From a virus: DNA of 39,918 nucleotides. Each line of letters starts with the position of its first letter. Positions within the stretch are counted from its first letter, which is position 1. The translations under genes and the position numbers were made by a program. The notes under the pieces are model-generated. The model was not told the DNA's origin and made no database searches. It was given only the letters and a program-made list of their open reading frames with translations. The stretch covers positions 1 to 39,918 of the IMG/VR virus record IMGVR_UViG_3300017991_000034. One strand, written 5' to 3'. Below are positions 124 through 39,918 of the stretch, piece by piece.

Positions 124-3100
124 TCTTAACAGTTGTTAATGCACTATCTGCAGATTGTAGTGTTGGAGGACCTGCTCCTGCAAATGTTACTTGGCCTGCT
201 CCGCCCTGACTAAACGAAATAACAGTACCTATTGGAAAGGCTACTGCTGCATTTGTCGGAACTGTTACAGTTATAGCGGCAGCATTAGTGAATGTTATAT
301 GTTTTCCAGCATCTCCTAAAACTAAAGTGTATGTAGTTCCTGTTTGATCATTAAGTGTTGTTCCTGTTGAAGCTACAGTTATAGAGCCAGCAGCATTGGT
401 AATATCTATTCCAACACCTTCAGTTAAAGTGGCTACGCTAGGGTCATTTCCGGTACTACCAACTAGTAATTGGCCATTAGTTAGTGCTGCAGAAGCTGTA
501 ATAGCACTTGTTCCAGAACCAAACAAAACGCCATGATCTGTTAATGTTGAAGCTCCAGTACCTCCGTCAGCCACAGGAACATCGGTACCATCTGCTCTGT
601 ATATATACTTGGTGCCAATTGTTACACCCGTATTTAAGTCACAAGTAGGATCATTGGCATTAGTAATAGTAATAAATGGTACATATGCTGTCCCATCAAC
701 ATCATATCCCTGTATAAGCATTGTATCTGTATCAACAGTTGTTGTTTGCAGACTTCCAGTATCAGCCATAGTAATACCAGTCATACCACTAATGGCAGCA
801 TCAAGATCTATAATTGGATCAGTAGCTGTACCAGAATCACTTAAATTTGTACCAGCTGTAACAGATGTTACCGTTCCAGAGGTTGCTGCTTGAAATGTGG
901 GTGCTGTACCTGCTCCATTTGCTGTAAGAACATATCCCGCTGTAGCTGCTCCAGTAACAACTCCTATTACATTAGCAGCTGAAGCAACTAATACATCTCC
1001 TATAGCAGCCGTACTAGGATATGTAGCTGTTGACCAAGCTGGAGGATTTCCTGTTGATCCTTGAAGGATAACACCTGTTGTTCCTACAGCTAATGATCCA
1101 ATTGGAGATCCTGTTCCATTACCAACTAGAAGAGCATTATTTGTAGTTGATGCTCCCCAATCATCTATAGTCTCCAGGGCTGATTGAACATTTGTATCGC
1201 TTGCGGATAGTATCCCATTAAAGTTAGTAACATTTGTTGTTATTAAAGACGCGTCATTAGTTCCTCCAGTAGAGACTGTTTGTCTTAATGTTGTTTTTTC
1301 TATAAGAACATCGACTATAGAACTAGAAGACTCTGAATATATTATATATCCAAGTAAAGCAGTTTCTAATTTTTCAAGCTCTCCACTTGGTTTAGCAATT
1401 GTTCCATTAGCTATAGCAGTTTGCGCTGATGTTAAATTATTATATTGAGATGTATCTAAAACTGCTCCATATTTAGGGGTAGCCGCATTTAAATCATCTT
1501 TCGAAATATATAAAGAATAAACTGCATATTTTGATACGCTAATTGCAGTTGGAGTACCTGCATTATTATAATACCCATCAAATGTATCACTTAAAGAATG
1601 TAAAGCCCATTTCCCTGATCCATTCGCGTACATTTGAAAAAACGTTTCAGCTGTTCCTCCACTGTCTGGTATATCAGTATAAAGACCATCATCACTTAAA
1701 ACATCAGCACCTGAGATCTCTATTTTTTGTGTACCATTAAGAGTAATATTTGCTCCATTATTTATATTTTCTATAATTGTTCCAACAGTATCATTTAAAT
1801 ATCTGGCTACAGGACAAGGAAAATTATATGGATGGTTTTCCTTTACAGTTAATTGATTATTTGTAGGAGTAGTAGAATCTCTAACACATTCGAATAATAC
1901 AATATTATCACAGTATATAGAATCATCAAATGTAGAGTCCTTACCTATAGTTCCGGTAGAATCTATATAAATTAAATATGCTGTTCCTGCAACTAAACCT
2001 GTTATGGTTTGCCCTCCAGTCCAGGTAACTTCTACTCCTTTTATATATCCTGTACCAGCTTGAGAAATAGTAAATGATCCTATAGTTGTATCATCAAAAT
2101 ACGGAGCTCCTCCAGACCATGAATGGAATCCAGAAGATGTTTTTAATGAATCATTAACATCTAAAGATATAGAACCTGCCCCATTAGTAACGCTTAAAAT
2201 ATTGCTAGAAGCTGCTATATTTCCAAGCACTGGATCTGCCCCTGTTGATCCTATTGGAATTTGTCCATCTGTGGCTGCTCCTAACTCTGTAATAGCTCCC
2301 GTTCCAGAGCCGACTATTAAACTATGATCTGTTATAGAAGAAACTCCTGTGCCTCCTAATGGCACAGTCAACGAAGCAACACTTCCTAATTGATGATTAC
2401 TATCTATAAGAGCTATATTTTGTGTACCTCCTGGAGTTACTCCATATATACCAGCTACGTAAGTAGTATCTTGTTGCTTATCTCCAGAACCATTAGTTCC
2501 TATACGTATAGTATTAGATTCAGCCGCTCCGTCACTGCAAATATAAATATTACTGCTATTAGCTGCTGCAGCTGAATTTCCAGCTCCATATCCAGTACCG
2601 TCAGCATTACTTCCAGATGAGGTTCCTATCATTACGTTATAAGAACCCGTTGTAACTTGATACCCAGATGTTTTACCTAGAAAAGTATTATAAACTGCTG
2701 AGGTTAAAGCGCCACCTGTAGATGTGCCTAGAAGTATATTAGCATCTCCAGTATCAATAGATTCTCCAGCTCCATCTCCTAATATTGCATTTCTTGTTCC
2801 TGAAGTTATTGATTTTAAAGCTTCAAATCCTACTGCAGTATTAAAACCTCCTATTCCAGCTGTTACAGAACCAGAACCTTCTCCTACAAAAGTATTGTAT
2901 GTTCCATAATTACTTATAAATCTAATACCACCAAAATTAACGACTCCAGAAGATCCTGTAGCCACTGTATCAGGTAAATTTAGATTACCAGTAGTTACAG
3001 TAAGGCCTGTTCCTGCAGTTACAGATCCACCAAAAGAAGGAGAATCTGTCCATCCTGGATCTGCCCCTGTTGAGCCCATAATGGTTTCACCGGTAGCTCC

Positions 3101-4071: not shown

Positions 4072-4413
4072 TTATTGTTCGTGAAAATAACCAGCAAGAT
4101 AAATATAACCAGATTGTCCAGCAGTACCTTGAGCATATAAAACAGTGCCTTTTTTAACTTTAGCAACATAGTTGCCTGGAGATGAATTAGTTTGAAAGTT
4201 TACTTCAATCGTTTTGCCTTTTGGTACATATTCATGTCCAGTTATTCCATCATAACTTATAATTACATCTGTATCAGAATCATTAGTTATACGTAAGAAA
4301 AAACAAGCCCCCTCAAGACCATCAGTATCAAACGCTGTCCATGTAGCAGCTGTTATTTCAGTTACATCTACTATAGATATAACTAAAGGGATAATGCTAT
4401 TTTTTTGAGACAT
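4072..4413 (-). CDS. Small protein of unknown function (113 aa from the ATG at 4413), tandem paralog of 3715..4062
   Basis: The ORF track starts at a TTG (4425). The ATG at 4413 is preceded by GGAGAG-N5 and is the more likely start. Confidence 0.6.
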   Translation of the reverse strand: MSQKNSIIPLVISIVDVTEITAATWTAFDTDGLEGACFFLRITNDSDTDVIISYDGITGHEYVPKGKTIEVNFQTNSSPGNYVAKVKKGTVLYAQGTAGQSGYIYLAGYFHEQ

Positions 4414-10027: not shown

Positions 10028-10564
10028 CTAAAATTTTAAATACTCAACAACTACATACGTAATAGTATAAGCCGTTCTATTACTACCAGTAACTATTGTA
10101 ACATTGGTATTATCAACAGATAAAGCTATGTTATTAATTAAAGTTGGTGATGCATACGGTAAGGGCAAGTATGATGTTCCGGCTTGATCGTTAGCAACTC
10201 CATAAATTCTAGTAAATATAGTTCCTGCTGTGACGTTTATTCCATGAGCAACATTAGTTGTACCTGTATTAGGCAATGCTCCAAAATTAATAACCTTCCT
10301 GTAAGTTTGTCTAAAATCTGGAGTTACTGCACTTAAAGATGAGGTTCCAGTTTGAGGGAAAAACTTTTGTCCTGTAACAAACTCAGAAGTATCATAATAT
10401 CCAGTATCTTTAAGATTGATATTAACAGACATCAAGTTAAGATTTTGATACAACCTAACTAAAAGTTCTTTAAATTCCGGGCTTGTTACTTCAGTTGAAT
10501 AAATTTCAGCAGTATCCCAAATATTAGTAGTAGGTATAAAGGAACCGATTTCTGCATTAGCCAT
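10028..10564 (-). CDS. Virion structural protein (178 aa), unknown role
   Basis: ORF track. Its start overlaps the upstream stop (translational coupling). Confidence 0.5.
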   Translation of the reverse strand: MANAEIGSFIPTTNIWDTAEIYSTEVTSPEFKELLVRLYQNLNLMSVNINLKDTGYYDTSEFVTGQKFFPQTGTSSLSAVTPDFRQTYRKVINFGALPNTGTTNVAHGINVTAGTIFTRIYGVANDQAGTSYLPLPYASPTLINNIALSVDNTNVTIVTGSNRTAYTITYVVVEYLKF

Positions 10565-12818: not shown

Positions 12819-13397
12819 TTAGTATCCTATAGCTAAAAATCTATACGTAGCAGCTGTACCTTTTAACGCAGAAGTAGCTCTAGTAGCAGAAAAAGTAGTA
12901 GTAGTCATAGAGGTTGCTCCAAGCACATAATCTCCAACATTACCATTTCCAGTGGCACCAAGACATATAATTACTTGAAGGCAAGAATTAGAGAAAGGCT
13001 GCACAAAAGTATGAGTTCTTGCTTGTATTTCTCCAGCTATAGTACTTCCACCCCAAACTAATTGAATACCGGAAGGTAGCATAGTCCATCCCTCTGAGGC
13101 TTTAGTAGCAGATGTAATCTCTACAACATCACCATCTGATTCATTTCTTATAAATAATTCAGCCACTCCAGAAAGAGCTGATTGTTTAGAATATAAAGCT
13201 TTTTCATTAGCTGCAGTTGTAGGATCTGCACCTTGTTCTGGAAAAGAAATATGTTTATGTTTACCCTGATCTCCAGTATCAAATGTTACGTGATTTATAT
13301 CTACCAAAGTCTTAATTGCTGCAAAATTATCCTGAATATCCTGTTGAGATTGGGATAATAGATCATTAGCCCCTGGAATTGAGTTACTGTATGCCAT
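12819..13397 (-). CDS. Tail-associated structural protein (192 aa)
   Basis: ORF track, with SD GAAGGAGG. The N-terminal pattern LLSQSQQDIQDNFAAIKTLVDINHVTF...GKHKHISFPEQ is common in phage tail and fibre proteins (from memory). Confidence 0.45.
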   Translation of the reverse strand: MAYSNSIPGANDLLSQSQQDIQDNFAAIKTLVDINHVTFDTGDQGKHKHISFPEQGADPTTAANEKALYSKQSALSGVAELFIRNESDGDVVEITSATKASEGWTMLPSGIQLVWGGSTIAGEIQARTHTFVQPFSNSCLQVIICLGATGNGNVGDYVLGATSMTTTTFSATRATSALKGTAATYRFLAIGY

Positions 13398-14380
13398 TAG
13401 TAGCCTCCTTCATTAAAAAAACCAGATACATTACCATTGGTTCCACTATATATAGTAGCTGTTCGTTCTTGTGATTGCTGATTAACTGTTCTTCTATTAA
13501 CTAATGCCTCTTGTTTTTTAAATTCAGGCATAATCATTTGAACGCTTTCCATATCCATACGATCTTCAAATACTTTCTTAGCAGCACCATAAGCAATATA
13601 TTGCCACCACTGAGACAACAATGGCTGGCTAGCATCAGTTAATAACTCAGTAGGCCTTATATCGTATTCAAAGTTAACAGCATACGGTTTATCTGGAACT
13701 GGTCTTAAAATAATAGAATTACCATAAAAAAGTACAGCACTTGGCATTCCAGCTGCATATATAACTGTCTGAGAGTCAACAGACTTATCAGTATCTGGAG
13801 GAGAACTAAAAGTTATATCATATTCTCCTGTTGTATAATTTATCGTACTAACTGCTCCAATATCTCCCGCAAACGTTCCTTCGCCGTCATTAGGATCGTT
13901 TGGAACGTCGTACATAGCCATTCCAACGTTATTATCAGCAATAGAAGTAAATGAAACATGTCCCCTCAAGATAGGAACCCCTGATAGAGTTCCAGTAAAG
14001 TCATCAGTTACAGAATCTCCAGTAGCTATAGATTTTATACTTTCAACTTTTGGATATAAATTATAAAATTCTTCTCTATTTTGAGAGTATATAGTTTTTT
14101 GACCAGCTACATAAAAATTTCCGTAAATATTAATACATGTATTTAAAAAATTATCTGCCAAGTCATTTAGCTCGTATGTGTCTACATTAGGCTGAGTAAA
14201 AAAAGTATATGTTCTTCTTAATGAAAAAGTTCTTAGATGCTCTGGAAAATCATAAAGAACAAACGTATTAATATAATCATTAATTGTATCATCAGTTATT
14301 TGTGCATTAGAAGGTGACTTGGTAAGCCTCCTAACTTTTATCCTTATCTTCTCAAGCGTAGATAAAGTATTATCTGGCAT
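13397..14380 (-). CDS. Virion structural protein (327 aa), possible head-tail adaptor
   Basis: ORF track, with SD AAGGAG. Its position lies between the capsid-proximal genes and the tail genes. Confidence 0.35.
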   Translation of the reverse strand: MPDNTLSTLEKIRIKVRRLTKSPSNAQITDDTINDYINTFVLYDFPEHLRTFSLRRTYTFFTQPNVDTYELNDLADNFLNTCINIYGNFYVAGQKTIYSQNREEFYNLYPKVESIKSIATGDSVTDDFTGTLSGVPILRGHVSFTSIADNNVGMAMYDVPNDPNDGEGTFAGDIGAVSTINYTTGEYDITFSSPPDTDKSVDSQTVIYAAGMPSAVLFYGNSIILRPVPDKPYAVNFEYDIRPTELLTDASQPLLSQWWQYIAYGAAKKVFEDRMDMESVQMIMPEFKKQEALVNRRTVNQQSQERTATIYSGTNGNVSGFFNEGGY

Positions 14381-14392
14381 TTTAACTCCTTA

Positions 14393-14749
14393 TTAAGTTA
14401 CATCCTGCACGGCTGCAGTAAGTTGATTACTAACTTGACCTATAGGAACAATTAAAGCACAAGTATTATCATGCCATGAAGGAGATACCGGAATAGAAAA
14501 TGCATCATAATTAGTTGTATCTATATCTACAGTAAACGTATCTGCTCCCGTCACTGTTATTATTCCTACTTTTTTATTTATTTGGCTCATGCCAACGCTT
14601 CTTGGAATATTAAATCTTACCATTGTTCCACTAACGTAGTTATGATTAAATGTTGTAGTTACAACAGCATTCATTTCTCTAGTTATAGAGCTTATTAATC
14701 TCATTGCTGGTTGTATATTTGGATCAGGATCAGCATAACATGTAGACAT
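14393..14749 (-). CDS. Small structural protein (118 aa) consisting essentially of one beta-barrel module
   Basis: ORF track, with SD AAGGAGAG. AVVTTTFNHNYVSGTMVRFNIPRSVGMSQINKKVGIITVTGADTFTVDIDTTNYDAF matches modules in the 334-aa and 750-aa ORFs. Confidence 0.55.
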   Translation of the reverse strand: MSTCYADPDPNIQPAMRLISSITREMNAVVTTTFNHNYVSGTMVRFNIPRSVGMSQINKKVGIITVTGADTFTVDIDTTNYDAFSIPVSPSWHDNTCALIVPIGQVSNQLTAAVQDVT

Positions 14750-14767
14750 AATACTCTCCTTCTTCTT

Positions 14768-15163
14768 TTAGACGTTTTCTACTGTTACAATTTGAGATGG
14801 ACTTACTGATAGTTCTTCAACATCAACAAATTCTAAACTTTGAAAACCAAACCTACTAACCTTTTGCCCTACTTTCATAGACACATTACCTGATTCATCT
14901 TTTAAATACTGATGTACAGGATAGCATCCATTCTTATTCAAATGCTTAGCTACACCTAAAGGTAACGTATATACTTGCCCATCAACTAATGTATATTTCT
15001 CTACAGGATCTTCTTTATAGGCCTTATATACAAAGCTTAATTCTCCTCCTGGAACTTCATAAAACTTAAATATTCCTTTTACTTTTTCTCTATCTTTATC
15101 TCTCTGATACTTAAGACTTGGTTTTTTCTTAATATCTTCTTTTGATTTTATCTTATTTTCCAT
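14768..15163 (-). CDS. Hypothetical protein (131 aa from the ATG at 15163)
   Basis: The ORF-track start at 15211 would read through the GC palindrome. The ATG at 15163 has AAGAAGGA upstream. Confidence 0.55.
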   Translation of the reverse strand: MENKIKSKEDIKKKPSLKYQRDKDREKVKGIFKFYEVPGGELSFVYKAYKEDPVEKYTLVDGQVYTLPLGVAKHLNKNGCYPVHQYLKDESGNVSMKVGQKVSRFGFQSLEFVDVEELSVSPSQIVTVENV

Positions 15164-15182
15164 GTGATCCTTCTTTCTTTTA

Positions 15183-15198
15183 GGGCCCACGTGGGCCC
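15183..15198. repeat. Perfect 16-bp GC-rich palindrome GGGCCCACGTGGGCCC downstream of the capsid gene pair
   Basis: Read directly. It is a striking GC island in AT-rich DNA, with no U-tract on either side. Confidence 0.9.
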
Positions 15199-15240
15199 AT
15201 CCGGGTTCCAAAAAATTTAAAGAGAATTAATTTCTTAAAA

Positions 15241-16245
15241 CTAACCTATATCATAAGCAAAAGATTTGCCTGCACGCCATTTAATGGCATCACCAGATGT
15301 TCCACCTGGAGAACCAAGAGCAATAGCAGCATCAGAACTTGTGCCTAAGATCATTCCTATAAACCCTGTATTCAACGTTGAACTATCAGTATACAACCCA
15401 TCAGTTCCAACTGGAATCATTTGTGCATAATCTACTGGGGCTGCAGCTGGAAGAGGGAATGCAAATGCTGTATAGCCTGATGTATCTACTCCAATACTGA
15501 ATGTTGAAGCATCAATAGCTGTAACATCTACAAGTTGATCATTTAATTCTACCATTCCACAACTAACTGGAACTTTAATTCTTACTTTTTGACCTGTTGT
15601 TAAGCCATGGTCAACCAAAGTTGTTACTACACCAGGACTTGCTGCTGTAATATTAGCTATAACACGCTTTTTTGGATAGAACATGTCGTATACGGTTCTA
15701 TTTGGAGAAATATATCTATATGTTCCGTTAGCTCCTGCTATAACTCCAGGTGCTGTTGCTAATGTATTTGCAAGCCTGAAAGATGTATCCAATGTAACTG
15801 TATCAACTGAAAAATCTAAACCATTAAGACTTGTATGAGCAGTGTTCTGTATTCTAACAATGCTGCCAGCTACTAGTCTTCCTGTATCAGCTGTACTATA
15901 AACTGGTTGTGTAGCATTAGAACCAGCTGTGATAGCTACGGCTGCACCAGGAGTTTTATCTGTAGAATCTATTAAAGAGATGCCTCTATAGACAGCTCCA
16001 TTAAATCCTACTGCTGATGTTGATGTTGAAATAACTTGAGACGCTGCAGCATGAAAATCGTTTAATGCATCGTCTTGGTTCATACCTCTCTGCCAATACC
16101 ATCTAGTACTAGCCCATTGAGTAGAACCACCTATATTTGTAAGATTATATACTTCTACCCAATCTACATCAGATCTTAAAGGAATAATCTTATCAGTTCC
16201 ATCAGAACTAAAATATCCTTGTTGGTTAACTGTATTGTAAGCCAT
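15241..16245 (-). CDS. Capsid-associated protein (334 aa), possible decoration / head-fibre protein with two beta-barrel modules
   Basis: ORF track, with SD AAGGGA. It lies immediately downstream of the MCP. The modules are GRLVAGSIVRIQNTAHTSLNGLDFSVDTVTLDTSFRL and GVVTTLVDHGLTTGQKVRIKVPVSCGMVELNDQLVDVTAIDASTFSIGVDTSGYTAF. Confidence 0.45.
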   Translation of the reverse strand: MAYNTVNQQGYFSSDGTDKIIPLRSDVDWVEVYNLTNIGGSTQWASTRWYWQRGMNQDDALNDFHAAASQVISTSTSAVGFNGAVYRGISLIDSTDKTPGAAVAITAGSNATQPVYSTADTGRLVAGSIVRIQNTAHTSLNGLDFSVDTVTLDTSFRLANTLATAPGVIAGANGTYRYISPNRTVYDMFYPKKRVIANITAASPGVVTTLVDHGLTTGQKVRIKVPVSCGMVELNDQLVDVTAIDASTFSIGVDTSGYTAFAFPLPAAAPVDYAQMIPVGTDGLYTDSSTLNTGFIGMILGTSSDAAIALGSPGGTSGDAIKWRAGKSFAYDIG

Positions 16246-23481: not shown

Positions 23482-24783
23482 TTACAAAGAAAGATAATCT
23501 TTTAAGAATTTAGTCCAGTAAGTATTTTTAGAAAAGTTAGTATTTAAGTACGAGTCATGAATATCCCTGGTTGGAAAATAAATAGATATGCCATTAGCAT
23601 TACATAATCCATGACACTTAACGTTCTTGATAATACTATCTTTTATAATAACAATACCTTTTCTTATTAGATACTCAAGAAGTACTATTCCGGTATTATT
23701 TTCTACACTATCTTCAATTATGGAGAAAGTTTCCAATAAGCTAGAATAGAAATGATACAAATCAATGTAATTCTTATTTATAAATGAAGTAGTTAGATTA
23801 TTGCTATTCCTTATAACCTTTAAAGCATTCATGTACATATTCTTGTCAGATCTTTCAAATAGAAGAATTAAAGCTTCGGCTATTTCATTTATATTAGCTT
23901 CTAATTTAACGTGGTTTTCAAGATCAATTGCCGAAAGCGTATATCCAATGTACGTATTTTGATAAGTATTTTTATATGAAGTAACTATATGTTTAGATAG
24001 ATCTTTTGGAGTAAAGGTTTGCGTTTTAAAGCTATCTAAAATCAAATCATACTTCCATCCTGTAGCAGGTTCTACTTCCTGAGAACCTATCATAATACTT
24101 ACAAAATCTTTTACCTGAGAGCCTATTTCTACCATAGACATAAAGCAGGCATCCATGCCTAAAATATCTAATTTCTTTCTATTTAATAAATTATTATAAA
24201 CTCTGTGCATGCAGCTATATAAATCATAATTCGTTAAATAGGTTTGGAAGACCTCATTAAATCCTATACCTTTGCTATCGACCAGCTTACGATTAAGTTC
24301 TATAAACCCAGTCTTTTTATTTAATATAAATATATCATGCGGATAACTAATACTAAGCTTGCCAAAAACATGTGGATCTTCTATACCAGATCCGTGATCC
24401 CATAAGATTAAAGCATTATGATGAGCAGGAAAGTTAGTTATAGCCCATTCTACAAATCTATAAAGATTTTCTTGCGTTCCGCTTGTACTTTGATAATTAT
24501 TAGACTGAACATCCAGTAAAACAGGAGCATCTTTATTAATTAAATACCTACAAGCTTCATTTTTTCCATGACTATCCACCTGAATCAAAATATTTACATT
24601 ATCATTAGACCCTACACTAATCATTTCATTAATATTTTTAACAGCAAAAGGTTCAAGGTCATTATTAGATACTAAATAAACTATGAAATTCCAATCCTTA
24701 ACTTGGGCCTTAGTGTCAGTAGCAAAAATTGAACAGTTAAATATAAATACTACAAATAATAAAATAGCTCTTAAAAAGACCAT
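23482..24783 (-). CDS. Secreted or signal-anchored clostripain-like (peptidase family C11) cysteine peptidase (433 aa from the ATG at 24783)
   Basis: SD AAGGAGG-N4-ATG at 24783. The hydrophobic N-terminus is FLRAILLFVVFIFNCSIFA. The His motif is NALILWDHGSG and the Cys motif is LDILGMDACFMSMVEIG, in the order and spacing typical of the C11 His/Cys dyad. Confidence 0.6.
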   Translation of the reverse strand: MVFLRAILLFVVFIFNCSIFATDTKAQVKDWNFIVYLVSNNDLEPFAVKNINEMISVGSNDNVNILIQVDSHGKNEACRYLINKDAPVLLDVQSNNYQSTSGTQENLYRFVEWAITNFPAHHNALILWDHGSGIEDPHVFGKLSISYPHDIFILNKKTGFIELNRKLVDSKGIGFNEVFQTYLTNYDLYSCMHRVYNNLLNRKKLDILGMDACFMSMVEIGSQVKDFVSIMIGSQEVEPATGWKYDLILDSFKTQTFTPKDLSKHIVTSYKNTYQNTYIGYTLSAIDLENHVKLEANINEIAEALILLFERSDKNMYMNALKVIRNSNNLTTSFINKNYIDLYHFYSSLLETFSIIEDSVENNTGIVLLEYLIRKGIVIIKDSIIKNVKCHGLCNANGISIYFPTRDIHDSYLNTNFSKNTYWTKFLKDYLSL

Positions 24784-24806
24784 AAAGCCTCCTTTACCAC
24801 CAAATA

Positions 24807-24989
24807 TCAATCACTAATCTTATCCAAAGGGACACTAATATCTACATCCACATCTACAATATCACTATCAATATCAACCTCATAAGTAACAGTATTCTCC
24901 TTTTTATCATGCTTAAAAGATGTATCCATAGTACACCCGCAATAAAAACTTATATAAAAAAGACAAAAAAATAGAAACCATTTATTCAT
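24807..24989 (-). CDS. Small secreted or lipoprotein-like protein (60 aa) with an acidic mature part
   Basis: Strong SD GGGAGG. The N-terminus is MNKWFLFFCLFYISFYCGC (signal-like, Cys after Gly; the lipobox is not canonical). Confidence 0.5.
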   Translation of the reverse strand: MNKWFLFFCLFYISFYCGCTMDTSFKHDKKENTVTYEVDIDSDIVDVDVDISVPLDKISD

Positions 24990-25225: not shown

Positions 25226-25852
25226 ATGTTTAAGAAAATATATAAATTTATCTTATTACTACTATTAAGTAGCAGCACTTTAAGTTCCATGGAAATAAAA
25301 GAGCCGTTCTTGGTAAAACCAGAAAGACTTAAAGATGTAAGGATATTTCACAACGATCGCGGTTTCTTTGCCGAACATAATAATATTGTATCCCCAATAC
25401 AAAATGCTTTTGTAGATCAAGAGTTAAGAAACCTAACGGATGAAAGATTAGGTTATTTACTGGGCATAATACAAAATGTTCAAATAGAAGGTAAAGTATA
25501 TACTTTCTACAAGATTATGAATGTGCCAGAAGAAACCGCTGTAAGAGAGTTAGATAACCTAGTAAGGGTACATGTAGATAATTCCCTCTTTAATTTTTCT
25601 AATTACATTAAAGTATCAGAATTATCTAACGGTGAATTATGCTTGCATTTCAAGGTTAGACTTCCAGGTGGTGGACCATTACTTGGAAATATAGCTTATT
25701 GGGTAGTAAGCGGAACAGGACAAACACTCTTAACAGTCTTAGATGCACTCAGCGGCGGCGCAACTGTCCCTGTAACAGTTGGAGCTAGAACTATAGTACA
25801 AGCTAGCGCATTAGTAATAGGTACAGTTGCAGCAGGAACACCAACCCCATAA
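25226..25852 (+). CDS. Secreted protein, paralog A (208 aa), with a Gly/Ala/Thr/Val-rich hydrophobic C-terminus
   Basis: The signal peptide is MFKKIYKFILLLLLSSSTLSS. Blocks shared with paralog B are EIKEPF, RLPGGGP and AYWV. Confidence 0.65.
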   Translation: MFKKIYKFILLLLLSSSTLSSMEIKEPFLVKPERLKDVRIFHNDRGFFAEHNNIVSPIQNAFVDQELRNLTDERLGYLLGIIQNVQIEGKVYTFYKIMNVPEETAVRELDNLVRVHVDNSLFNFSNYIKVSELSNGELCLHFKVRLPGGGPLLGNIAYWVVSGTGQTLLTVLDALSGGATVPVTVGARTIVQASALVIGTVAAGTPTP

Positions 25853-25866
25853 AGAAAGAATAAAAA

Positions 25867-26694
25867 ATGTTTAAAAAAACAATATTAAGTTTAATAACAA
25901 TATCTGCATTTGCTTTAAATACAGCAAAACCTGTTGAAATAAAAAAGCCTTTTATATTCAGCAAAGAATCTGCTGGAAACATAAAATTACATCATGAAAG
26001 AAATAAATTTTATGTTGAGAAGGACGATAACTTAATCGAAGTAAGCGGTGCTTTTATAAGTTGCCCAATAAGAAATATAGATACTAATACTTTACTTCAT
26101 ATGCTAGGAATTAAAAAGCTAGTAAGCGTAAAAGGGATGTCTCTAGTATTTGAAAGAATAGAAGACATTAGAAAAGTAGATACGAATCTTTTAAAAAATA
26201 AGCCTATAATCGGATTCACAGAAGAAGAAACTGAAGAAATAACAAAACAGTTAGAAAATACTACTAGCTACATAGAGATAATTCAGTTAGATGAAAATGA
26301 ATATGCTTTAAACCTTAAACACAGACTATGCGGTGGTGGACCAGTAAGTGGATTCGTTGCTTACTGGGTAACAAAAGTATTTTGTTACGGAACTGCAGCA
26401 GCTGCTTTGACTACAGCCACAGTAGGTACATGCGGAGCTGCCGGGGCTGTGGCAGGCGGAGCAGCCGCAGCAGCAGGCGCAGGAGCAGCAGCCGCAATTG
26501 GATCTGGAACTGCAGCTACAGTTGCAGGAATAGGTGGAGCTATGGTGGCAGGTGGCTCTGCTGCAGCTGCAGGTGGAGCAGCAGTAGCAACCGGAGCAGT
26601 TCTTGCTAGTGGAGTTTCAACTGCAGTAGCAGCTGTTGAAACTGGATCTACAGCTGTTGGTTTATTTTTTACAGCAATTCCTTTTTTACCATAG
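25867..26694 (+). CDS. Secreted protein, paralog B (275 aa), with a ~110-aa Gly/Ala-rich (glycine-zipper-like) C-terminus
   Basis: The signal peptide is MFKKTILSLITISAFALNTA. The shared blocks are EIKKPF, RLCGGGP and AYWV. The tail GTAAAALTTATVGTCGAAGAVAGGAAAAAGAGAAAAIGSG... forms a local GC-rich island at 26390..26660. Confidence 0.65.
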   Translation: MFKKTILSLITISAFALNTAKPVEIKKPFIFSKESAGNIKLHHERNKFYVEKDDNLIEVSGAFISCPIRNIDTNTLLHMLGIKKLVSVKGMSLVFERIEDIRKVDTNLLKNKPIIGFTEEETEEITKQLENTTSYIEIIQLDENEYALNLKHRLCGGGPVSGFVAYWVTKVFCYGTAAAALTTATVGTCGAAGAVAGGAAAAAGAGAAAAIGSGTAATVAGIGGAMVAGGSAAAAGGAAVATGAVLASGVSTAVAAVETGSTAVGLFFTAIPFLP

Positions 26695-26700
26695 TAAGAA

Positions 26701-26817
26701 ATGATAGAAATAATAAATGAACTTCTAAATTACTTTTTTGGTGGCTATTTTGGATACACATTTATGACGTATCTTATAGACTGGTATGCCGATAGAAAAA
26801 AGGGAAACAATGATTAA
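26701..26817 (+). CDS. Micro-protein (38 aa: MIEIINELLNYFFGGYFGYTFMTYLIDWYADRKKGNND), aromatic and hydrophobic
   Basis: The ATG lies 6 nt after the paralog B stop. It is not in the ORF track. Confidence 0.35.
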   Translation: MIEIINELLNYFFGGYFGYTFMTYLIDWYADRKKGNND

Positions 26818-26926
26818 TTTGAATTGCCCTGGAATGGTTATGTCTGCAGCAAGAATGATATGTTTTATTCTTTCTCTAGTTGTAGCTAAAAAAGTAATTA
26901 AGTTCTATAAAAACAAAATAAAATAA
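26810..26926 (+). CDS. Micro-protein (38 aa: MINLNCPGMVMSAARMICFILSLVVAKKVIKFYKNKIK), one TM plus a basic tail
   Basis: SD AAGGGAAA precedes the ATG. It overlaps the previous micro-ORF (ATGATTAA). It is followed by the terminator hairpin. Confidence 0.4.
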   Translation: MINLNCPGMVMSAARMICFILSLVVAKKVIKFYKNKIK

Positions 26927-26939
26927 ACACACAGCAAAA

Positions 26940-26961
26940 GGGGGGACTATGTAGTCCCTCC
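26940..26961. terminator. Hairpin between the convergent plus-strand unit and TerL (bidirectional terminator candidate)
   Basis: GGGGGGACUA-UG-UAGUCCCUCC gives a stem of about 9 bp. On the minus strand it is followed by CUUUUG. Confidence 0.5.
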
Positions 26962-27030
26962 CAAAGAACAAATAGGCTGTTCTGCAAAAAGGCTTTGCTT
27001 TATAATAATATAATAATTGTAACTAGAGTG

Positions 27031-30000
27031 CTACCTGAAAAAAGAAGGAATATCTTCATCTCCGTATACAGCAGATCTATATCTCTTCTCAAGTTCTTCG
27101 GCCGATAGACCATCTCTTGTCTTTGGTAATGAAATACATAAGTATCTGAGAGCGTCACAATTAGAAACAAGATACCCGTTAATATAATAACAGTTGTCTC
27201 TTTCAACTGTTAAATCGTATACCTCTTTTGGTGTATCTACTTGATATAATTCCACACTTCTTACCACATGTTTTCTTGATAGAATATTTATTACATTCAA
27301 ACTCTTTATTGCAAATAATACAAAGCCTTTTTTCAAAATCGAGACGAGCCAGGACCCTGGACTTAGTCTTACATTTATTGCTGCAGTATTTTTGCCAAGC
27401 CTGTTTCCCTTGGTACTCCTTTTTGCAAACAACACAAGTTTTCTTGTATTTAATATTCCTACAAGACGGGAGAGAAGTTTGAGCATGCTCCTTATGCCAG
27501 CGCCTTCCTTCTTCGCTACAATGCCATTCTTTAGCTTTCGCGTTTTGTGAACGCAACAAGTTTTTACATTCGTCTGATTGACTCCAAGAACCTGGCCTGG
27601 TTGCATGCCTATGCCCGTGCTCAAATCTCGTAAGCAGCTCAAGGTTTGATATCTCATTATTTTTGGCATTTCCGTCCCTGTGATGAACGACGTAGCCTTT
27701 CGGTATAGGGCCTTTATTTTTCTCCCAAATGTGTCTTTGAAGTGTAGTATGCACGCTTTTACCCGCATAAGAAGTTCCATTACTCTGGAACATTCTTCCT
27801 GAGCCCCCCATGTAGTATTTTGAGGCATTCCATCTATAAATGTACCCATTAAACATGACTTGTTTCTCGTCTTCAGAGATAAGATAGTCTTCTTGAATCC
27901 TTTTGAATCTTGTTCCGCGATATAATATCCAAATATCTTTTTCCATAAATAGTTCCTAAATTTACTAAATGGTTCCAATATGTCACCATATCGCAAACTA
28001 TCAGCATAAGTCAATCCTTCTTGAGTAAATATTTGATGCTCTGGAGTACATTTTATTTTTTTGTTTATTAAACACAACTTTCTTGCATATCTTTTATGTT
28101 TTTTTAAAACTTTTCTTATACCTAAAGGTGTTATAACTTCATCACCTTCCCGTATATCTTTAATAGCTATATTTCCGGATGGAGTTAAAACTTGCATCTC
28201 ACCAGTAAAACAAAAATGGCTGTAAATATCATGAAGCGGCCTAGGCTTATAAACCTTCTTCTTAGAGTCGTATTCTTGCCTATAGTTATTTATGGCTTTA
28301 ATTAACGACTGACATTTAGTTTCATCAATCCATATCTTAGAGAAAGCAGAGCGAACGGATTCTATGCCATCTTCAATAGAAATACTAGGAGCAACCGTAA
28401 ATTTTATTCCTAAATTCTTAGCTTTTTCTAGTCTGGTCATACCTGAACCAAATTCTTTTACTTTAATATCATGAGGAGCTATATGCTTACCATAGATATA
28501 GTCTTTTTGAGCTAAGATTTTAACGTAGTGCTCTAGACCTTCTTTATTTTTTTCATAGCAGTCTATAATTCTTACTGTTTGCCCTATTGTCTGAAAGAAA
28601 ATGATACATGTTGAATCTCTTACTCCTAGATCCCAAGCAGTATGAACTTTAAATCCTGGCTCATAAGGAACCATCCCCAGTTGATTGTTAAGTTTCATCT
28701 TGTCTAAATACTTAGCGTAATAAGCACCCTCAACACCTAAGCTAAACGAACAGTAGTATTCCTGTTGAATTAGATCTTCAGACATCAATCCTTCTTCTCG
28801 TTCCTTTTCTATTTCTCTATAGGGAATATGTCTTGTATCTTCAAGGGTAAGATGATAGGCGAACCAATCTGGGCTATTCTTGGCCACTTGATACAGTTCC
28901 CAGAAGTTGTTCTTGCCACGAGGCGTATTGTGACTAATAAAGCCGTTACTGAAGAAGGAGTGCGTGGATGGTATGACGAAATCGTACACTTCGGATTCTG
29001 ATGCTTCAATAGATTGAACAGGAGAATAAAATAAATTCTCTTTAATTAAGGATTTTAAATACACACTATCATATTTTATTATCAATTTTTTTATTAATCT
29101 ACGAGATATGCGTGACGCATTAGCTATTTCTTTTTTTAAATACTTAAAGTCTAATTTTGAAGGATTTACTGGGTAAACGTTTCCAGATTCTTTTTTAACA
29201 TTGTTAGGAATAAACTTACAGTTTACCTGTTTTCTTTTTAATCTAAATCCTATTTGCGTATAAAATATGTGTGCAAAATATCCAGTTATTTCTAGGTTAT
29301 AAATTGTACTATGCGCCTTCACTTTTTTAGTAGGCTCTTTCTCTTCCTTTCTGATAGAAGATGCTATTCCGAAGTTTAATAAAACTATTTGAAGGTCTCG
29401 AATAAATTTCTTACACGCAGATGTAATCTTTATATATCCACACTTAGAAGGATTTGAATTACTTGTGCCGTCGCCATCAAAAAGACCTTGTAAGAACGCT
29501 TTCAGCTGGGCTCTAGTACATTCAAATAATTTATCTGGAAATGTTTTATTTTTAGCACCATGCCTAAATCCAAGCCATTCCAAAAGTAAACAAAATGTTC
29601 GCGAATTAAAGTTATGGTGTATACCATCTTTAAAAGTAGTAAATCTATTAGAGCGTAAGAATTTTATTATTTCAGGATCTTTTTTATTGGTAATAGTTAC
29701 CTTATTTTTATCGTAGCTTCCATCGGCATGAATAAGACCCAAAAGATAAAAGAAGTCTTTGTCACACGCTCTATCTTCTATTTCCCACCCAGAATGCGGA
29801 TGCTCCTTATGCTTAAACTTAGAAAAATACAATCCTTTTCCAAATACATTCTGTCCATATTGCACTGGAAATAAATCACCTACTTTAATATCAGAGGACT
29901 TCATCCACTCACAACCATTCCATAATGGATGTACAGGAGTACATTCTATTTCGTAACCAGAAGAAAGTTTTATTTTTAAAGTATTCTGATTACCACCAAA

Positions 30001-30633
30001 ATAAAAATCCGTAGCTTTGTTAAAACCATTCAAACCAAAAATAGGTTCATTTAGAGAAGAATATTCTTCTCTTGAATTAGATACCTTACTAATCCTTTTT
30101 AACCCATTTTCTGTTATCACTAATGTATTAGGAGAAACACACGAAATAAAAAGCGCCCATCCATCATTTGCTGCAAGAATAGGACGTATAAATTGATAAG
30201 CGCGTGGATCCTGTATTGCATACTCAGAAAATACGCACCCATAAGGGTTTGAGCCTACAAGGCTATCAATATTATCTGAACCAATAAGCTGTAAGATAGA
30301 CCCGTTAATAAAAGAAATCTTCATTTCCTGCGAATTCTTAGACATTATAAGCTCGTCTGGAATGAAGTCTGTAAACTTTTGACCCGAATTCGTAATTGAG
30401 TCCCAGATTACCTTCTTAGCTTGAGAGTATGTTGGGAATATATAATAGACAATGCAAATTTTCTTAATGCATTGTCTTATAGCTAAATTCCATGCAACAA
30501 TATCTTTACCTGCCCTTCTTGGCATAACTACAAGAATCTTTTTATATTCTTTGTTCTCTAGGGCATCAACTATTGGAATTTGGTATTTTCTTGGAGAAAA
30601 TTTATTTAATACTCTTCTTGTCTGATAGTTCAT
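27031..30633 (-). CDS. terL: Terminase large subunit precursor (1200 aa) containing two inteins; the mature extein product is about 444 aa
   Basis: Extein motifs: Walker A VVMPRRAGKD, Walker B GCVFSEYA, coupling motif ALFIS|TPRGKN, nuclease motifs HTAWDLGVRDST, IAPHD and YSHF|CDALRY. Confidence 0.9.
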   Translation of the reverse strand: MNYQTRRVLNKFSPRKYQIPIVDALENKEYKKILVVMPRRAGKDIVAWNLAIRQCIKKICIVYYIFPTYSQAKKVIWDSITNSGQKFTDFIPDELIMSKNSQEMKISFINGSILQLIGSDNIDSLVGSNPYGCVFSEYAIQDPRAYQFIRPILAANDGWALFISCVSPNTLVITENGLKRISKVSNSREEYSSLNEPIFGLNGFNKATDFYFGGNQNTLKIKLSSGYEIECTPVHPLWNGCEWMKSSDIKVGDLFPVQYGQNVFGKGLYFSKFKHKEHPHSGWEIEDRACDKDFFYLLGLIHADGSYDKNKVTITNKKDPEIIKFLRSNRFTTFKDGIHHNFNSRTFCLLLEWLGFRHGAKNKTFPDKLFECTRAQLKAFLQGLFDGDGTSNSNPSKCGYIKITSACKKFIRDLQIVLLNFGIASSIRKEEKEPTKKVKAHSTIYNLEITGYFAHIFYTQIGFRLKRKQVNCKFIPNNVKKESGNVYPVNPSKLDFKYLKKEIANASRISRRLIKKLIIKYDSVYLKSLIKENLFYSPVQSIEASESEVYDFVIPSTHSFFSNGFISHNTPRGKNNFWELYQVAKNSPDWFAYHLTLEDTRHIPYREIEKEREEGLMSEDLIQQEYYCSFSLGVEGAYYAKYLDKMKLNNQLGMVPYEPGFKVHTAWDLGVRDSTCIIFFQTIGQTVRIIDCYEKNKEGLEHYVKILAQKDYIYGKHIAPHDIKVKEFGSGMTRLEKAKNLGIKFTVAPSISIEDGIESVRSAFSKIWIDETKCQSLIKAINNYRQEYDSKKKVYKPRPLHDIYSHFCFTGEMQVLTPSGNIAIKDIREGDEVITPLGIRKVLKKHKRYARKLCLINKKIKCTPEHQIFTQEGLTYADSLRYGDILEPFSKFRNYLWKKIFGYYIAEQDSKGFKKTILSLKTRNKSCLMGTFIDGMPQNTTWGAQEECSRVMELLMRVKACILHFKDTFGRKIKALYRKATSFITGTEMPKIMRYQTLSCLRDLSTGIGMQPGQVLGVNQTNVKTCCVHKTRKLKNGIVAKKEGAGIRSMLKLLSRLVGILNTRKLVLFAKRSTKGNRLGKNTAAINVRLSPGSWLVSILKKGFVLFAIKSLNVINILSRKHVVRSVELYQVDTPKEVYDLTVERDNCYYINGYLVSNCDALRYLCISLPKTRDGLSAEELEKRYRSAVYGDEDIPSFFR
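27160..28212 (-). mobile_element. Intein 2 in TerL (351 aa, residues C808-N1158): a mini-intein scaffold whose linker is overprinted by an out-of-frame HNH gene
   Basis: It starts CFTGEMQVLTP. Block B is KCTPEHQIF. The C-terminal blocks are EVYDLTVERDNCYYINGYLVSN followed by +1 Cys. The penultimate residue is Ser, not His. It is inserted in the nuclease motif SHF/CDALRY. Confidence 0.75.
27203..27946 (-). CDS. HNH homing endonuclease (247 aa) encoded in the -1 (+2) frame inside intein 2
   Basis: It has its own AGGA-N7-ATG. The HNH motif is GYVVHHRDGNAKNNEISNLELLTRFEHGHRH. Two C-terminal zinc ribbons (CVVCKKEY...YCSNKC; CIICNKEF...TCGKKC) resemble those of the 7613..8443 HNH. Confidence 0.8.
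   Translation of the reverse strand: MEKDIWILYRGTRFKRIQEDYLISEDEKQVMFNGYIYRWNASKYYMGGSGRMFQSNGTSYAGKSVHTTLQRHIWEKNKGPIPKGYVVHHRDGNAKNNEISNLELLTRFEHGHRHATRPGSWSQSDECKNLLRSQNAKAKEWHCSEEGRRWHKEHAQTSLPSCRNIKYKKTCVVCKKEYQGKQAWQKYCSNKCKTKSRVLARLDFEKRLCIICNKEFECNKYSIKKTCGKKCGIISSRYTKRGIRFNS
28927..30141 (-). mobile_element. Intein 1 in TerL (405 aa, residues C165-N569) with a LAGLIDADG endonuclease domain
   Basis: It starts CVSPNTLV. Block B is CTPVHPLW. The LAGLIDADG motifs are LLGLIHADGS and LQGLFDGDGT. It ends FISHN followed by +1 Thr. It is inserted inside the ATPase coupling motif (IS/TP). Codons were checked at both junctions. Confidence 0.85.
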
Positions 30634-30829
30634 CTTTGACTGTCTTAGATCTTCTTGTTTTTGACATTTGTTTTTTCTTTTCTAGCTTTTCTACCCGTAT
30701 AATAAGATTCTCAAGCTGCTCAGAAAGATCAATCATAAAGCCATAATTAATCTTTTCTTTTTGACCTATTCTATAAACCTCGGTATCTAAATCTCCTTTA
30801 ATGAATTTTCTTATTGATTCTATCATCAT
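30602..30829 (-). CDS. Small coiled-coil protein (75 aa)
   Basis: ORF track, with SD GAGGAGG. Its 3' end overlaps the TerL start by 32 nt. Confidence 0.5.
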   Translation of the reverse strand: MMIESIRKFIKGDLDTEVYRIGQKEKINYGFMIDLSEQLENLIIRVEKLEKKKQMSKTRRSKTVKDELSDKKSIK

Positions 30830-31059
30830 TCCTCCTCATCAGTTAACTCGAACAGACCTTCTTTCACTTCTTCAATTATAACATTATTAATATTTTCTAG
30901 CTTTTTTTCAACCTCTTCCACACGTTCTAACAGTTTAAAAAGATCTCTCTTGGTTCTTTTTTCAAACTCTACAATATAATCAGACACCGCATTATTCAAT
31001 TCATTTAAGTATTTAAACTTAACTTCTATTTCTCTTTCTTTTTCAAATTTATTCTTCAT
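30826..31059 (-). CDS. Small acidic coiled-coil protein (77 aa)
   Basis: ORF track. Its ends overlap both neighbouring genes. Confidence 0.5.
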   Translation of the reverse strand: MKNKFEKEREIEVKFKYLNELNNAVSDYIVEFEKRTKRDLFKLLERVEEVEKKLENINNVIIEEVKEGLFELTDEEE

Positions 31060-38057: not shown

Positions 38058-39845
38058 CTATATATCTAAAGTTGCTAATTTACCACTAGCCCCTACTGCT
38101 ACCCAATTATCAGAGCCTGAACTTAATCCTTTAATTGCAGTTCCAGAAAAAGATGAAGTCTCCAACGTCCAAGTTCCTGTAGGATCAGATGCATAGGCTA
38201 TTTCACCATTATCATTACAAGCTCTCCAAAGTGAACCATCATATGTAACACAGTTAATATTGTGAGAACTAGACAAGGGATTAGTCCTTTGTGTCCACGT
38301 AGATGTAGGTGATGTGCTAGTTGCTATTTTTCCAGACGCACCACAAGCTACCCATATTGAATTAGCATATTCAACCCATAAAATGTAATCAGTACCAAAA
38401 GAACTTGTCCTAGATGTCCACGTAGATGTAGGATCGCTAGCCGTCGCCATATATCCTGTCTCGCCAACGATTGTCCACGTTGTCCCATCATAAGCTGCCT
38501 TATACATAACTTTACCCGTAAAGGGAGTAGTCCTGGATGTCCATGTCGATGTAGGATCTGTTGCCGTCATAACTTGAGCACTTGTACCACCGGTAGCTAC
38601 ATAATAACCATCTGAACCATATGTAATACCAATTACAAGATCAGTAGATGGATTAGTCCTCTGTGTCCATGTTCCTGTAGGTGATGTGCTAGTTGCTATC
38701 TTTCCACCGTTACCAGTTGCTACCCAGTATGTAGATCCATCATAAATAACATCAAATATAGTATCAGAAGTAAAAGAACTAGTTCTCTGTGTCCATGTTC
38801 CTGTAGGTGATGTGCTTGTTGCTAGTTTAGCACTACTGCCTACAGCTACCCAAGTTGTTCCATCTTCATATACACTATTAATTTGGGTAGTACCGAAAGA
38901 ACTTACGACCTGATTCCATGATGTTGACAGAGCTTCTTTGGTTGCTATTTTTCCATTTTGACCAACAATAGTAAAATAACCATCTCCACCATCTACCCAT
39001 CTAACATCATCTGTAGTTCCAAAATTACTAGTTTGCAATGTCCAAGTACCAGTAGGGTCATCAGTTTGAGCCACTTGACCATCTGCACCACATGCAGTCC
39101 ATGTACCATTATAATAAGAAACTCCCAATAAGCTCTTACCGCTATCAAAAGGATTATCTCCTCCTGTTATCTGAGTGAAACTTGATGTTGGATCTGTAGA
39201 GTAGGCCATCTTGCCAGATCCACCTACCGCTACCCAATTTGTCGATCCATCATAATCTATAGCCAATATATTATCACTACCAAAAGAACTAGTCCTTGAT
39301 GTCCACGTACCAGTAGGATCCGTAGCTGTACTCATTTCTCCACCAGCTGCAACAGCAACCCATAAACTTCCTGAATATGTAACATCATTAATAGATCCTG
39401 TTATATTGCTGGTCCTAGAAGTAAATGTAGAAGTAGGATCGGTAGCAGTATATAATTTTCCACTACCACCGCAAATTATATAATAAGTACCATCATATCC
39501 AGCATTTAATATATTATCAGTACTAAATCCAGGATCTGTTCTCAATGTCCACGTACCAGTAGGATCTGTAGCGGTACTAAATTTACCAGCTTGACCAACA
39601 GCAATCCAATATGATCCTCCATGCGTAATATTTGCTATAAATGAAGTAGAAAACCCACTAGTCCTTGATGTCCACGTACTCGTAGGATCCGTGGCAGAGG
39701 ATAATTTTCCACTGTCACCAACTATAACCCAGTAAGCAGATCCATCATATTTAACGCCATAGATTGCATCACTACTGAAACCGCTAGTTCCTAAGGTCCA
39801 AACATCTCTGCGTCTTTTTGTCATTAAACCTTGTAATCCAACCAT
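38058..39845 (-). CDS. 14-repeat beta-propeller-like virion protein (595 aa)
   Basis: SD GGAGG. There are fourteen ~42-aa repeats with the consensus ATDPTGTWTSRTSSFG..I..V.YDGS.WVAVG.SGK.AT. Confidence 0.65.
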   Translation of the reverse strand: MVGLQGLMTKRRRDVWTLGTSGFSSDAIYGVKYDGSAYWVIVGDSGKLSSATDPTSTWTSRTSGFSTSFIANITHGGSYWIAVGQAGKFSTATDPTGTWTLRTDPGFSTDNILNAGYDGTYYIICGGSGKLYTATDPTSTFTSRTSNITGSINDVTYSGSLWVAVAAGGEMSTATDPTGTWTSRTSSFGSDNILAIDYDGSTNWVAVGGSGKMAYSTDPTSSFTQITGGDNPFDSGKSLLGVSYYNGTWTACGADGQVAQTDDPTGTWTLQTSNFGTTDDVRWVDGGDGYFTIVGQNGKIATKEALSTSWNQVVSSFGTTQINSVYEDGTTWVAVGSSAKLATSTSPTGTWTQRTSSFTSDTIFDVIYDGSTYWVATGNGGKIATSTSPTGTWTQRTNPSTDLVIGITYGSDGYYVATGGTSAQVMTATDPTSTWTSRTTPFTGKVMYKAAYDGTTWTIVGETGYMATASDPTSTWTSRTSSFGTDYILWVEYANSIWVACGASGKIATSTSPTSTWTQRTNPLSSSHNINCVTYDGSLWRACNDNGEIAYASDPTGTWTLETSSFSGTAIKGLSSGSDNWVAVGASGKLATLDI

Positions 39846-39918
39846 AATTATGCCTCCAGATCACCAAAAAAGCGCCATGTGTCTGTCAAAATTTTAATCA
39901 TGCAGCCACCAGAATAAA
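39796..39918. repeat. Terminal direct repeat, copy 2 (identical to 1..123)
   Basis: Exact match to the window start. Confidence 0.95.

Follow-up and report, generated by a model that had tools for sequence, protein, structure and literature searches.

An intein with its endonuclease encoded out of frame was proposed for Synechocystis dnaX (Gorbalenya 1998), and such arrangements were documented in 2025-2026. Gosselin, Arsenault and Gogarten (10.1101/2025.01.02.630785) described non-canonical inteins of actinophages that hold an antisense LAGLIDADG, an antisense Vsr-like or a same-strand, frame-3 endonuclease VII-like gene, HNH endonucleases being found in frame only; the origin proposed is a free-standing endonuclease gene invading an intein. 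A cyanobacterial dnaX intein carries a LAGLIDADG endonuclease in the +2 frame (Phillips, DeSimone and Gogarten, 10.64898/2026.09.14.751524). Fractured genes have been found with GIY-YIG and Vsr-like endonucleases only, an HNH version having been predicted and not observed (Dassa et al. 2009, PMC2677866). For several inteins in the large terminase subunit (TerL) of mycobacteriophages, splicing and endonuclease activity have been shown experimentally (Kelley et al. 2016, PMC5050341). Here we analysed the terL gene in a viral DNA stretch of 39,918 nucleotides (nt) (IMG/VR virus record IMGVR_UViG_3300017991_000034, positions 1 to 39,918; hereafter the window), which encodes a TerL precursor with two inteins. 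It is likely that both inteins are mobile and that the loop of the second one (intein 2) holds a separate HNH_3 endonuclease gene in the -1 frame relative to terL; splicing, expression of the HNH protein, its cleavage specificity and homing are what we infer from the comparisons below.

The terL precursor open reading frame (ORF) (27031..30633, minus strand, as are all parts of the gene given below) encodes 1200 amino acids (aa) and contains a lone stop at its end. Its segments are, in order, 164 + 405 + 238 + 351 + 42 aa. The N-extein (aa 1-164, 30142..30633) is the N-terminal part of the ATPase, with the P-loop PRRAGKD, and ends in ...DGWALFIS. It is followed after extein residue 164 by intein 1 (28927..30141, 405 aa) and then by the middle extein (28213..28926, 238 aa), which comprises the remaining ATPase domain and the bulk of the nuclease domain and ends in ...LHDIYSHF. 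Intein 2 (27160..28212, 351 aa in the terL frame) comes after extein residue 402, and the C-extein (27034..27159, 42 aa, CDALRYLCISLPKTRDG...), delimited by junction reading and alignment, completes the protein. A sequence-only reading of the window had proposed two inteins at these very positions, and direct inspection bears it out: all four junctions are in frame with the letters claimed (...DGWALFIS|CVSPNT...GFISHN|TPRGKN for intein 1 and ...DIYSHF|CFTGEM...GYLVSN|CDALRY for intein 2), the exteins sum to 444 aa, the +1 residues are Thr and Cys, the penultimate residue of intein 2 is Ser, and the inteins make up 63% of the terL coding length, where more than 60 percent had been announced. 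The same reading had named contiguity of the exteins with intein-less terminases as the test on which it could fail. The spliced 444-aa extein has 5,529 relatives, the best of which (444-455 aa, 70-81% identity) align with it end to end at 100% coverage. Several carry the name 'phage terminase large subunit', almost all lack inteins, and in the multiple alignment the window exteins are contiguous with the intein-free TerLs. The extein also matched the PHROG TerL family phrog_2 (E 8.5e-34), and its ATPase half aligned with the ATPase domain of P74-26 TerL (4ZNI, E 3e-7, profile). Because the exteins are contiguous with intein-free homologs and because of the PHROG terminase and P74-26 matches, we consider the two-intein TerL confirmed. 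Pfam and NCBIfam scans of the extein gave a weak GpA_ATPase match only and no nuclease-domain model; among PDB entries the family profile found the P74-26 ATPase domain only, the nuclease half of the extein matching PHROG terminase families only.

In the alignment, DGWALIISTPKGLN of P74-26 TerL stands opposite DGWALFIS|TPRGKN of the window, and the insertion site of intein 1 (site c) falls in the conserved DGWALIISTPKG strand of the P74-26 ATPase. Intein 2 is inserted (site e) in a C-terminal H-x-x-D motif, separating His401 from Asp404, two residues that do not vary in the family; by what is established for RNase-H-like terminase nucleases, this would be their metal-binding motif. Of the insertion points as the sequence-only reading had described them, the location of site c in a conserved ATPase strand is upheld by the alignment; the labels 'coupling' and 'nuclease catalytic' come from established terminase knowledge only. 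Inteins occur in this TerL family at five sites, after extein residues 40 (P-loop), 123, 164, 222 and 402, of which the window uses 164 (intein 1) and 402 (intein 2). In what follows, relatives are denoted by P (proteins) or L (DNA loci) and a number. Locus L009 (492-4907) encodes a 1472-aa TerL precursor with three inteins at sites b, d and e, and P0136 is a 1177-aa precursor with three inteins at the P-loop, c and e. As the family has five sites and genes with as many as three inteins, a TerL with two is less unusual than had been implied. Site e is also occupied in P0073/L001 and other related loci. In intein-free alleles, this site mostly has Ala where intein alleles have the +1 Cys or Ser (SHFADALRY compared with SHF|CDALRY; alignment A1). 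Homing into such empty alleles would thus succeed only with co-conversion at the +1 codon, and the Ala alleles may be refractory to it.

Intein 1 displays the class-1 features Cys1, block B TPVH, terminal SHN and +1 Thr. It matched PF14890 (Intein_splicing) with 46 bits (cutoff 35.8) and, at its ends, TIGR01445 with 40.3 bits (cutoff 24.5) and TIGR01443 with 17.6 bits (cutoff 15.6), the intein_Nterm and intein_Cterm models. Two LAGLIDADG motifs had been claimed for it and are indeed present, as LLGLIHADG and LQGLFDGDG. The endonuclease domain is in frame and matched PF14528 (LAGLIDADG_3) with 75.4 bits (cutoff 22.5), PF05204 being matched as well; the best Pfam stretch covers 29248..29508 (precursor residues 376-462), with LLGLIHADG just upstream of it. 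An exhaustive search gave 5,925 relatives, the closest of which (P0134, 61% identity) occupies the identical TerL site, and P0135 and P0136 have an intein at this site plus additional ones. Judged by sequence, intein 1 is a canonical bifunctional class-1 LAGLIDADG intein that would be expected to splice.

The splicing parts of intein 2, a probable class-1 Hint intein, are confined to its two ends. The N-terminal part of the Hint domain (27949..28212, 88 aa), matched by profiles and under purifying selection in the terL frame, contains block A CFTGEM and block B TPEH; the C-terminal part (27160..27276, about 39 aa) contains blocks F and G, VYDLTVERDNCYY...YLVSN, and shares its 5' part with the 3' end of the HNH gene. 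Cys1, TPEH, VYDLTVERDNCYY, the terminal Asn and the +1 Cys are all found, and they are conserved across related loci. The penultimate residue is Ser instead of His, as in most members of the family, and this is a known and tolerated deviation in inteins. Hint and intein profiles cover only the first ~65 and the last ~22 residues. With the read-through removed, intein 2 scored 27.2 bits against TIGR01445 (cutoff 24.5) and 28.6 against Vint (cutoff 27). The ~224 central residues read in the terL frame had no match in Pfam even at E<=1, and a homology search with intein 2 in this frame gave six proteins only, with 0 in-frame HNH domain calls.

The endonuclease is found on the same strand in the -1 frame (2-nt offset) relative to terL. 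The nested gene (27203..27946, 247 aa) matched PF13392 (HNH_3) with 60.4 bits (cutoff 24.8) and the PHROG 'HNH endonuclease' family phrog_15471 (E 1.7e-31), and its product ends in two CxxC...CxxxC Cys4 zinc ribbons. The HNH core residues H88, H89, D91, N97, N101 and H110 are family-invariant, and the window ORF keeps every invariant catalytic and Cys residue. A structure predicted with AlphaFold2 (AF2) had a pLDDT of 77, with a core of ~90, and its best match in the PDB was I-HmuI (probability 0.96). A Shine-Dalgarno (SD)-like AGGA (27954..27957) stands 7 nt before the ATG (27946..27944), and upstream of the ATG the HNH frame is closed by TAG, TAA and TAG within 7 codons (27956-27958, 27962-27964 and 27965-27967). 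Full-length stand-alone homologs (202-241 aa) start at the equivalent residue. The ORF begins at intein residue 89 and stops 14 codons short of the intein C-terminus. Inteins canonically hold their endonuclease, or are split, at this position, and the gene runs with its 3' end into the block F coding sequence. Read in the terL frame, the start region (27935-27946, minus strand, ATGGAAAAAGAT) gives G-AAA-AAG, which is similar to a -1 slippery site that would move ribosomes into the HNH frame. A 9-bp hairpin on the HNH stop codon (27212..27188) was considered and rejected as a conserved element; it is found in the window and in L015 only and shows no covariation across 15 loci, and we therefore regard it as a by-product of codon choice. 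Of the earlier description of intein 2 as a 351-aa intein, the boundaries stand and the notion of an ordinary intein does not, as about 250 of its residues are an out-of-frame HNH gene read through; the evidence supports calling that description incomplete rather than wrong.

Both frames are open over the HNH gene, and elsewhere in terL the frame with the same offset as HNH contains ~0.12 stops per codon. When the HNH codons were shuffled among synonyms, the terL frame remained open in 0.7% of trials (mean 3.4 stops), and when the order of the HNH codons was shuffled it remained open in 0.01% (mean 7.2 stops), compared with 0 stops observed. The double openness in the window is not due to chance (P 0.007 to 0.0001). 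Nine nested loci were tested (the window and eight others), and each had 0 stops in the terL frame against 1.7-8.5 expected; the equivalent frame has 13 stops in the free-standing homolog and 8 in the split-intein homolog described below. We then compared the differences per codon position. In the terL frame they were 0.36/0.26/0.62 in the N-extein and 0.41/0.31/0.57 in the Hint N-terminal part; in the overlap they were 0.36/0.31/0.52 for the HNH frame and 0.31/0.51/0.36 for the terL frame. The most variable position is therefore terL position 3 in the extein and Hint N-terminal part, and terL position 2 (= HNH position 3) in the overlap. Amino-acid identity in the overlap was highest in the HNH frame (0.50), with 0.32 in the terL frame and 0.31 in the third, unused one. 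Purifying selection thus changes frame exactly in the overlap, where it acts on HNH and no longer on terL. Since both the codon-position pattern and the identities favour the HNH frame, the terL-frame polypeptide encoded over the HNH gene is an unselected by-product in which stops alone are avoided.

The arrangement is not restricted to the window. Scans of viral and metagenomic contigs, plus three additional look-ups, gave 12 distinct nested sequences (the window, L001, L002, L007, L008, L009, L010, L012, L014, L023, L024 and L025), and 12 out of 12 have an intact HNH ORF of 217-257 aa in the same -1 frame with the terL frame open throughout. In nine loci the HNH start is preceded, at 7-8 nt, by a conserved SD box (AGGA or AAGGAG). 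P0121 (L002), whose HNH is the closest homolog, lies within an open terL frame that ends in ...YLVSN|CDAMRYLCISL. P0073 is a 726-aa TerL with an intein at site e, and its DNA, L001, holds a homologous out-of-frame HNH ORF. L001 is a divergent locus in which the open HNH frame (2752-3405) reaches to 30 codons after Cys1, overlapping the coding sequence of the Hint N-terminal part; its true HNH start may be an internal Met. Two isolated phages have an intein at the nuclease D-A motif of TerL with an unannotated nested HNH gene that is homologous to that of the window. In Clostridium phage phiCDHM19 (L026, NC_028996), terL (443..2842, 799 aa) reads ...HDDA|CFEEGT...FLVSN|CDATTG, and the nested open frame of 230 codons has AAAGGAG before a GTG start and begins VEVQET; where 5.3-6.8 stops would be expected in its terL frame there are 0 (P<2e-4). 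In Tetrasphaera phage TJE1 (L027, NC_019930), terL (13379..15565, 728 aa) contains an intein with a nested -1-frame HNH gene. GenBank labels both structures 'terminase large subunit' only, and a search of the accessible literature gave no paper connecting inteins with phiCDHM19 or TJE1. Another phage among the search matches, phiCD119, probably has an equivalent nested intein.

Other relatives lack the intact nested gene. The nearest relatives of the extein (80% identity) are free of both inteins and of the HNH gene. In L011, L013 and L015 the HNH ORF is truncated or deleted and terL is still open; L015 (= L016, L022), which comes closest to intein 2 (79% nt identity), has lost the HNH core through a 402-nt deletion, and its terL also has a P-loop intein (PRR|C...HN|SGKD). 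In L003/L004, an HNH homolog stands free, located between the terL and portal genes. L005/L006 are from another TerL family; in them, the N-terminal Hint part, a homologous HNH (33% identity) and the C-terminal Hint part are in three frames with stops between them. Within L005 (1988-4212), the ORF for the TerL N-terminal part and the N-terminal intein part ends at 3469, the HNH gene covers 3426-4106, and the ORF for the C-terminal intein part and a 19-aa C-extein runs from ~3952; each of the three has its own SD-like box and start, and L006 is identical over the checked region 3301-4300. The insertion is in the same nuclease motif (...NDH|C...HN|CMDAIRY). Because the parts are in three frames and the site is in the same motif, we interpret L005/L006 as a fractured gene with a split intein, and it looks like the HNH-type fractured gene predicted by Dassa et al. 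2009. In a fractured gene the host gene is in two ORFs; in the window, terL is one uninterrupted ORF.

Intein 2 of the window has the defining features of the non-canonical inteins of Gosselin et al. As in those, it is contiguous, it is in TerL, a frequent host, it has an endonuclease in another frame at the insertion region, and the host frame is stop-free with a read-through that has no recognisable fold. Unlike them, it carries an HNH_3 endonuclease with two zinc ribbons, on the same strand and in the -1 frame, at a nuclease-motif site, and it occurs in uncultured low-GC phages with P22-like portals, a C. difficile phage and Tetrasphaera phage TJE1. The dnaX intein shares with it the overlapping frames, in which constraint falls on the endonuclease and is relaxed for the host gene, and the coexistence of mini-intein and empty alleles; it differs in being a LAGLIDADG intein of cellular dnaX with a +2 ORF, for which no split or free-standing endonuclease relatives were identified. 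L005/L006 resemble the fractured genes of Dassa et al. in having a free-standing endonuclease at the split point whose 3' end overlaps the coding sequence of the C-terminal intein part, while the host frame of the window is unbroken and its contiguous intein reads through the endonuclease gene. A hidden alternate-frame HNH in a host gene that is stop-free across it is also known from the ShiLan-type methylase (Arsenault et al. 2025, PMC11855218), but that element has no splicing domains and its insert stays as a loop, whereas the read-through in the window is part of a Hint domain and presumably leaves by splicing. In mycobacteriophages, too, TerL is the foremost host of inteins, which enter it at several functional motifs (PMC5050341), yet its seven sites are all in the ATPase domain, and site e is in the C-terminal nuclease H-x-x-D motif. 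I-HmuI (PDB 1U3E), from a group I intron of a Bacillus phage, is the best structural match and shares the HNH_3-type catalytic core; it differs in that identity is 18% and the global TM-score low, that it is intron-encoded, and that it lacks the two C-terminal Cys4 ribbons. What is new here is the HNH_3/zinc-ribbon type, the site in the TerL nuclease motif, the breadth of the family and its split, decayed and free-standing relatives; a two-intein TerL in itself is of a well-known kind.

We propose that ribosomes translating terL would stay in its frame across the HNH gene and add ~250 aa of arbitrary, unselected polypeptide, selection on that frame in the overlap being limited to stop avoidance. 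The two Hint halves would then associate and both inteins would splice out to give the 444-aa active TerL. The HNH protein would be made separately by internal initiation from its own SD and ATG, most simply on the terL mRNA. In a mixed infection it would cut an intein-free terL near site e, and recombinational repair would copy in the intein together with the HNH gene, the +1 Cys or Ser codon required by splicing being gained through co-conversion. The sporadic spread of empty, full and decayed alleles gives indirect support to such homing of intein 2 and its HNH gene. Several observations weigh against this proposal. The profile check suggested by the sequence-only reading came out above every cutoff for intein 1, but intein 2, which passes TIGR01445 and Vint, is below the cutoffs of PF14890 (33.3-33.9 vs 35.8) and TIGR01443 (15.5 vs 15.6); it is divergent and has no penultimate His. 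AF2 gave intein 2 in the terL frame a pLDDT of 30 throughout, including the Hint ends, from a two-sequence alignment; this model is uninformative, is not taken as a sign of disorder and gives no support for Hint halves folding round a 250-aa arbitrary insert. A promoter scan round the HNH start was at background (7 sites vs 5.4+/-2.7 expected) and so revealed no promoter dedicated to the gene, and internal initiation within a translated ORF may be inefficient.

We weighed other explanations of the locus. Intein 2 could be an ordinary in-frame HNH intein disrupted by two sequencing or assembly indels: in-frame HNH inteins are known (Dalgaard 1997, as cited in later work), and the window, an assembly of metagenome type, overlaps itself by 123 nt at its ends. 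Two indels would however predict ~3-7 stops in the terL frame over HNH where 0 were observed, three stops close the HNH frame directly before its ATG, and two finished genomes of isolated phages share the -1 offset, SD and start with the window, as do 11 other distinct metagenomic loci that come from different samples, which leaves errors of this kind with a practically negligible likelihood. It is also extremely improbable that site e is occupied by a group I or II intron with an HNH ORF, removed as RNA. HNH_3 genes are common in phage group I introns and the PHROG matches include an 'intron-like DNA endonuclease' family, but an Rfam scan of 26800..30900 at E<=1 gave no intron or other family, save a spurious 7SK match, and the exteins share one frame with Hint blocks A, B, F and G, whose limits are exactly Cys1 and Asn|Cys+1; moreover, the terL frame is stop-free, which an intron does not need, and is under purifying selection in the Hint N-terminal part. 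The HNH frame being exactly -1 relative to terL, with G-AAA-AAG at the junction in the window, L002, L007, L008 and L014, one may also think of programmed -1 frameshifting at TGG AAA AAG, which would fuse the TerL N-terminal and Hint N-terminal parts to HNH instead of internal initiation. We find this very unlikely: the A-run is a simple consequence of the conserved N-terminus MEKD and is missing in L010 (GTGGAAAATGAT) and L012 (ATGGCGAATGAT), phiCDHM19 starts VEVQET at a GTG, the SD box and start codon are conserved in loci without the slippery run, and stand-alone homologs begin at the equivalent residue.

Two further explanations concern the role of the HNH protein. Decayed forms in the close relatives L015 (79% nt identity), L011 and L013, as a homing cycle predicts, would also fit a recently inactivated HNH passenger in the window, intein 2 being a non-homing mini-intein with a junk linker. 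The window ORF is nevertheless of full length with all invariant catalytic and zinc-binding residues kept, its SD and ATG are conserved, its fold is predicted with confidence and family-wide substitutions show purifying selection on the HNH frame, so that inactivation is unlikely. Instead of a homing endonuclease, the protein might be a packaging cofactor of the terminase, a role that HNH proteins have in HK97-like cos phages; a free-standing homolog sits between terL and portal in L003/L004, and HNH genes beside terminase genes are common (PMC3592412). This, too, has a very low probability in our estimate, given that most of the TerL family, the closest relatives included, has neither intein nor HNH, that HNH decays or is deleted while terL stays intact, that the genome has a P22-like portal, and that an HNH_3 with an I-HmuI-like structure is of the homing type.

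Returning to the proposal of a mobile intein with a nested -1-frame HNH_3 gene, the set of relatives allows a wider, tentative suggestion, to which we give somewhat less than an even chance: that one HNH lineage is seen in every stage of endonuclease-intein association, namely free-standing, nested, decaying or deleted, and splitting an intein. If so, the family would be a natural and experimentally tractable record of bifunctional and split inteins arising from mini-intein invasion, and a Hint domain could splice round ~250 residues of essentially random polypeptide. With phiCDHM19 and TJE1 being isolated phages, experiments are possible. The non-canonical intein class of 2025-2026 is extended to a new endonuclease family, a new kind of site and new phage groups, and gene callers systematically miss such nested endonuclease genes. 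The free-standing, nested, decayed and split forms provide comparative material for two models, endonuclease acquisition by invasion and split inteins by gene fracture. An essential enzyme made through ~250 aa of unselected read-through would be a natural test of insert tolerance in Hint domains, relevant to intein engineering, and stop avoidance without amino-acid conservation is a clean signature that can be used to find additional overprinted elements.

The first 123 nt of the window (1-123) are exactly identical to the last 123 (39796-39918), leaving 39,795 bp of unique sequence, and because this end overlap is exact we consider the genome complete, either circularly closed or terminally redundant. 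It contains 0 tRNA genes and codes for virion proteins and for a portal of the P22-like type. When 18 kb of the window were compared with GenBank phages by megablast, there was no match. A terminator-like GC hairpin with a T-rich tail (26943..26958, minus strand), found by consensus scan only, lies ~70 nt past the terL stop. Between terL and the peptidase gene next to it, two ORFs are on the opposite strand (25226-26694, plus strand) and the sign of the GC skew flips; the second (25867..26694, plus strand, 275 aa) begins with a signal-like N-terminus, its C-terminal half is long, hydrophobic and rich in Gly and Ala, and Pfam gave no match. The peptidase is a 442-aa ORF (23482-24810, minus strand) of the clostripain family Peptidase_C11 (E 8.6e-41), located between the portal gene and terL, an unusual content for a phage packaging module. 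In the virion module, two proteins (10564-12816 and 15241-16245, both minus strand) each match the ubiquitin-E1 FCCH model PF16190 (26 and 36 bits), which probably reflects a small beta-domain shared by structural proteins.

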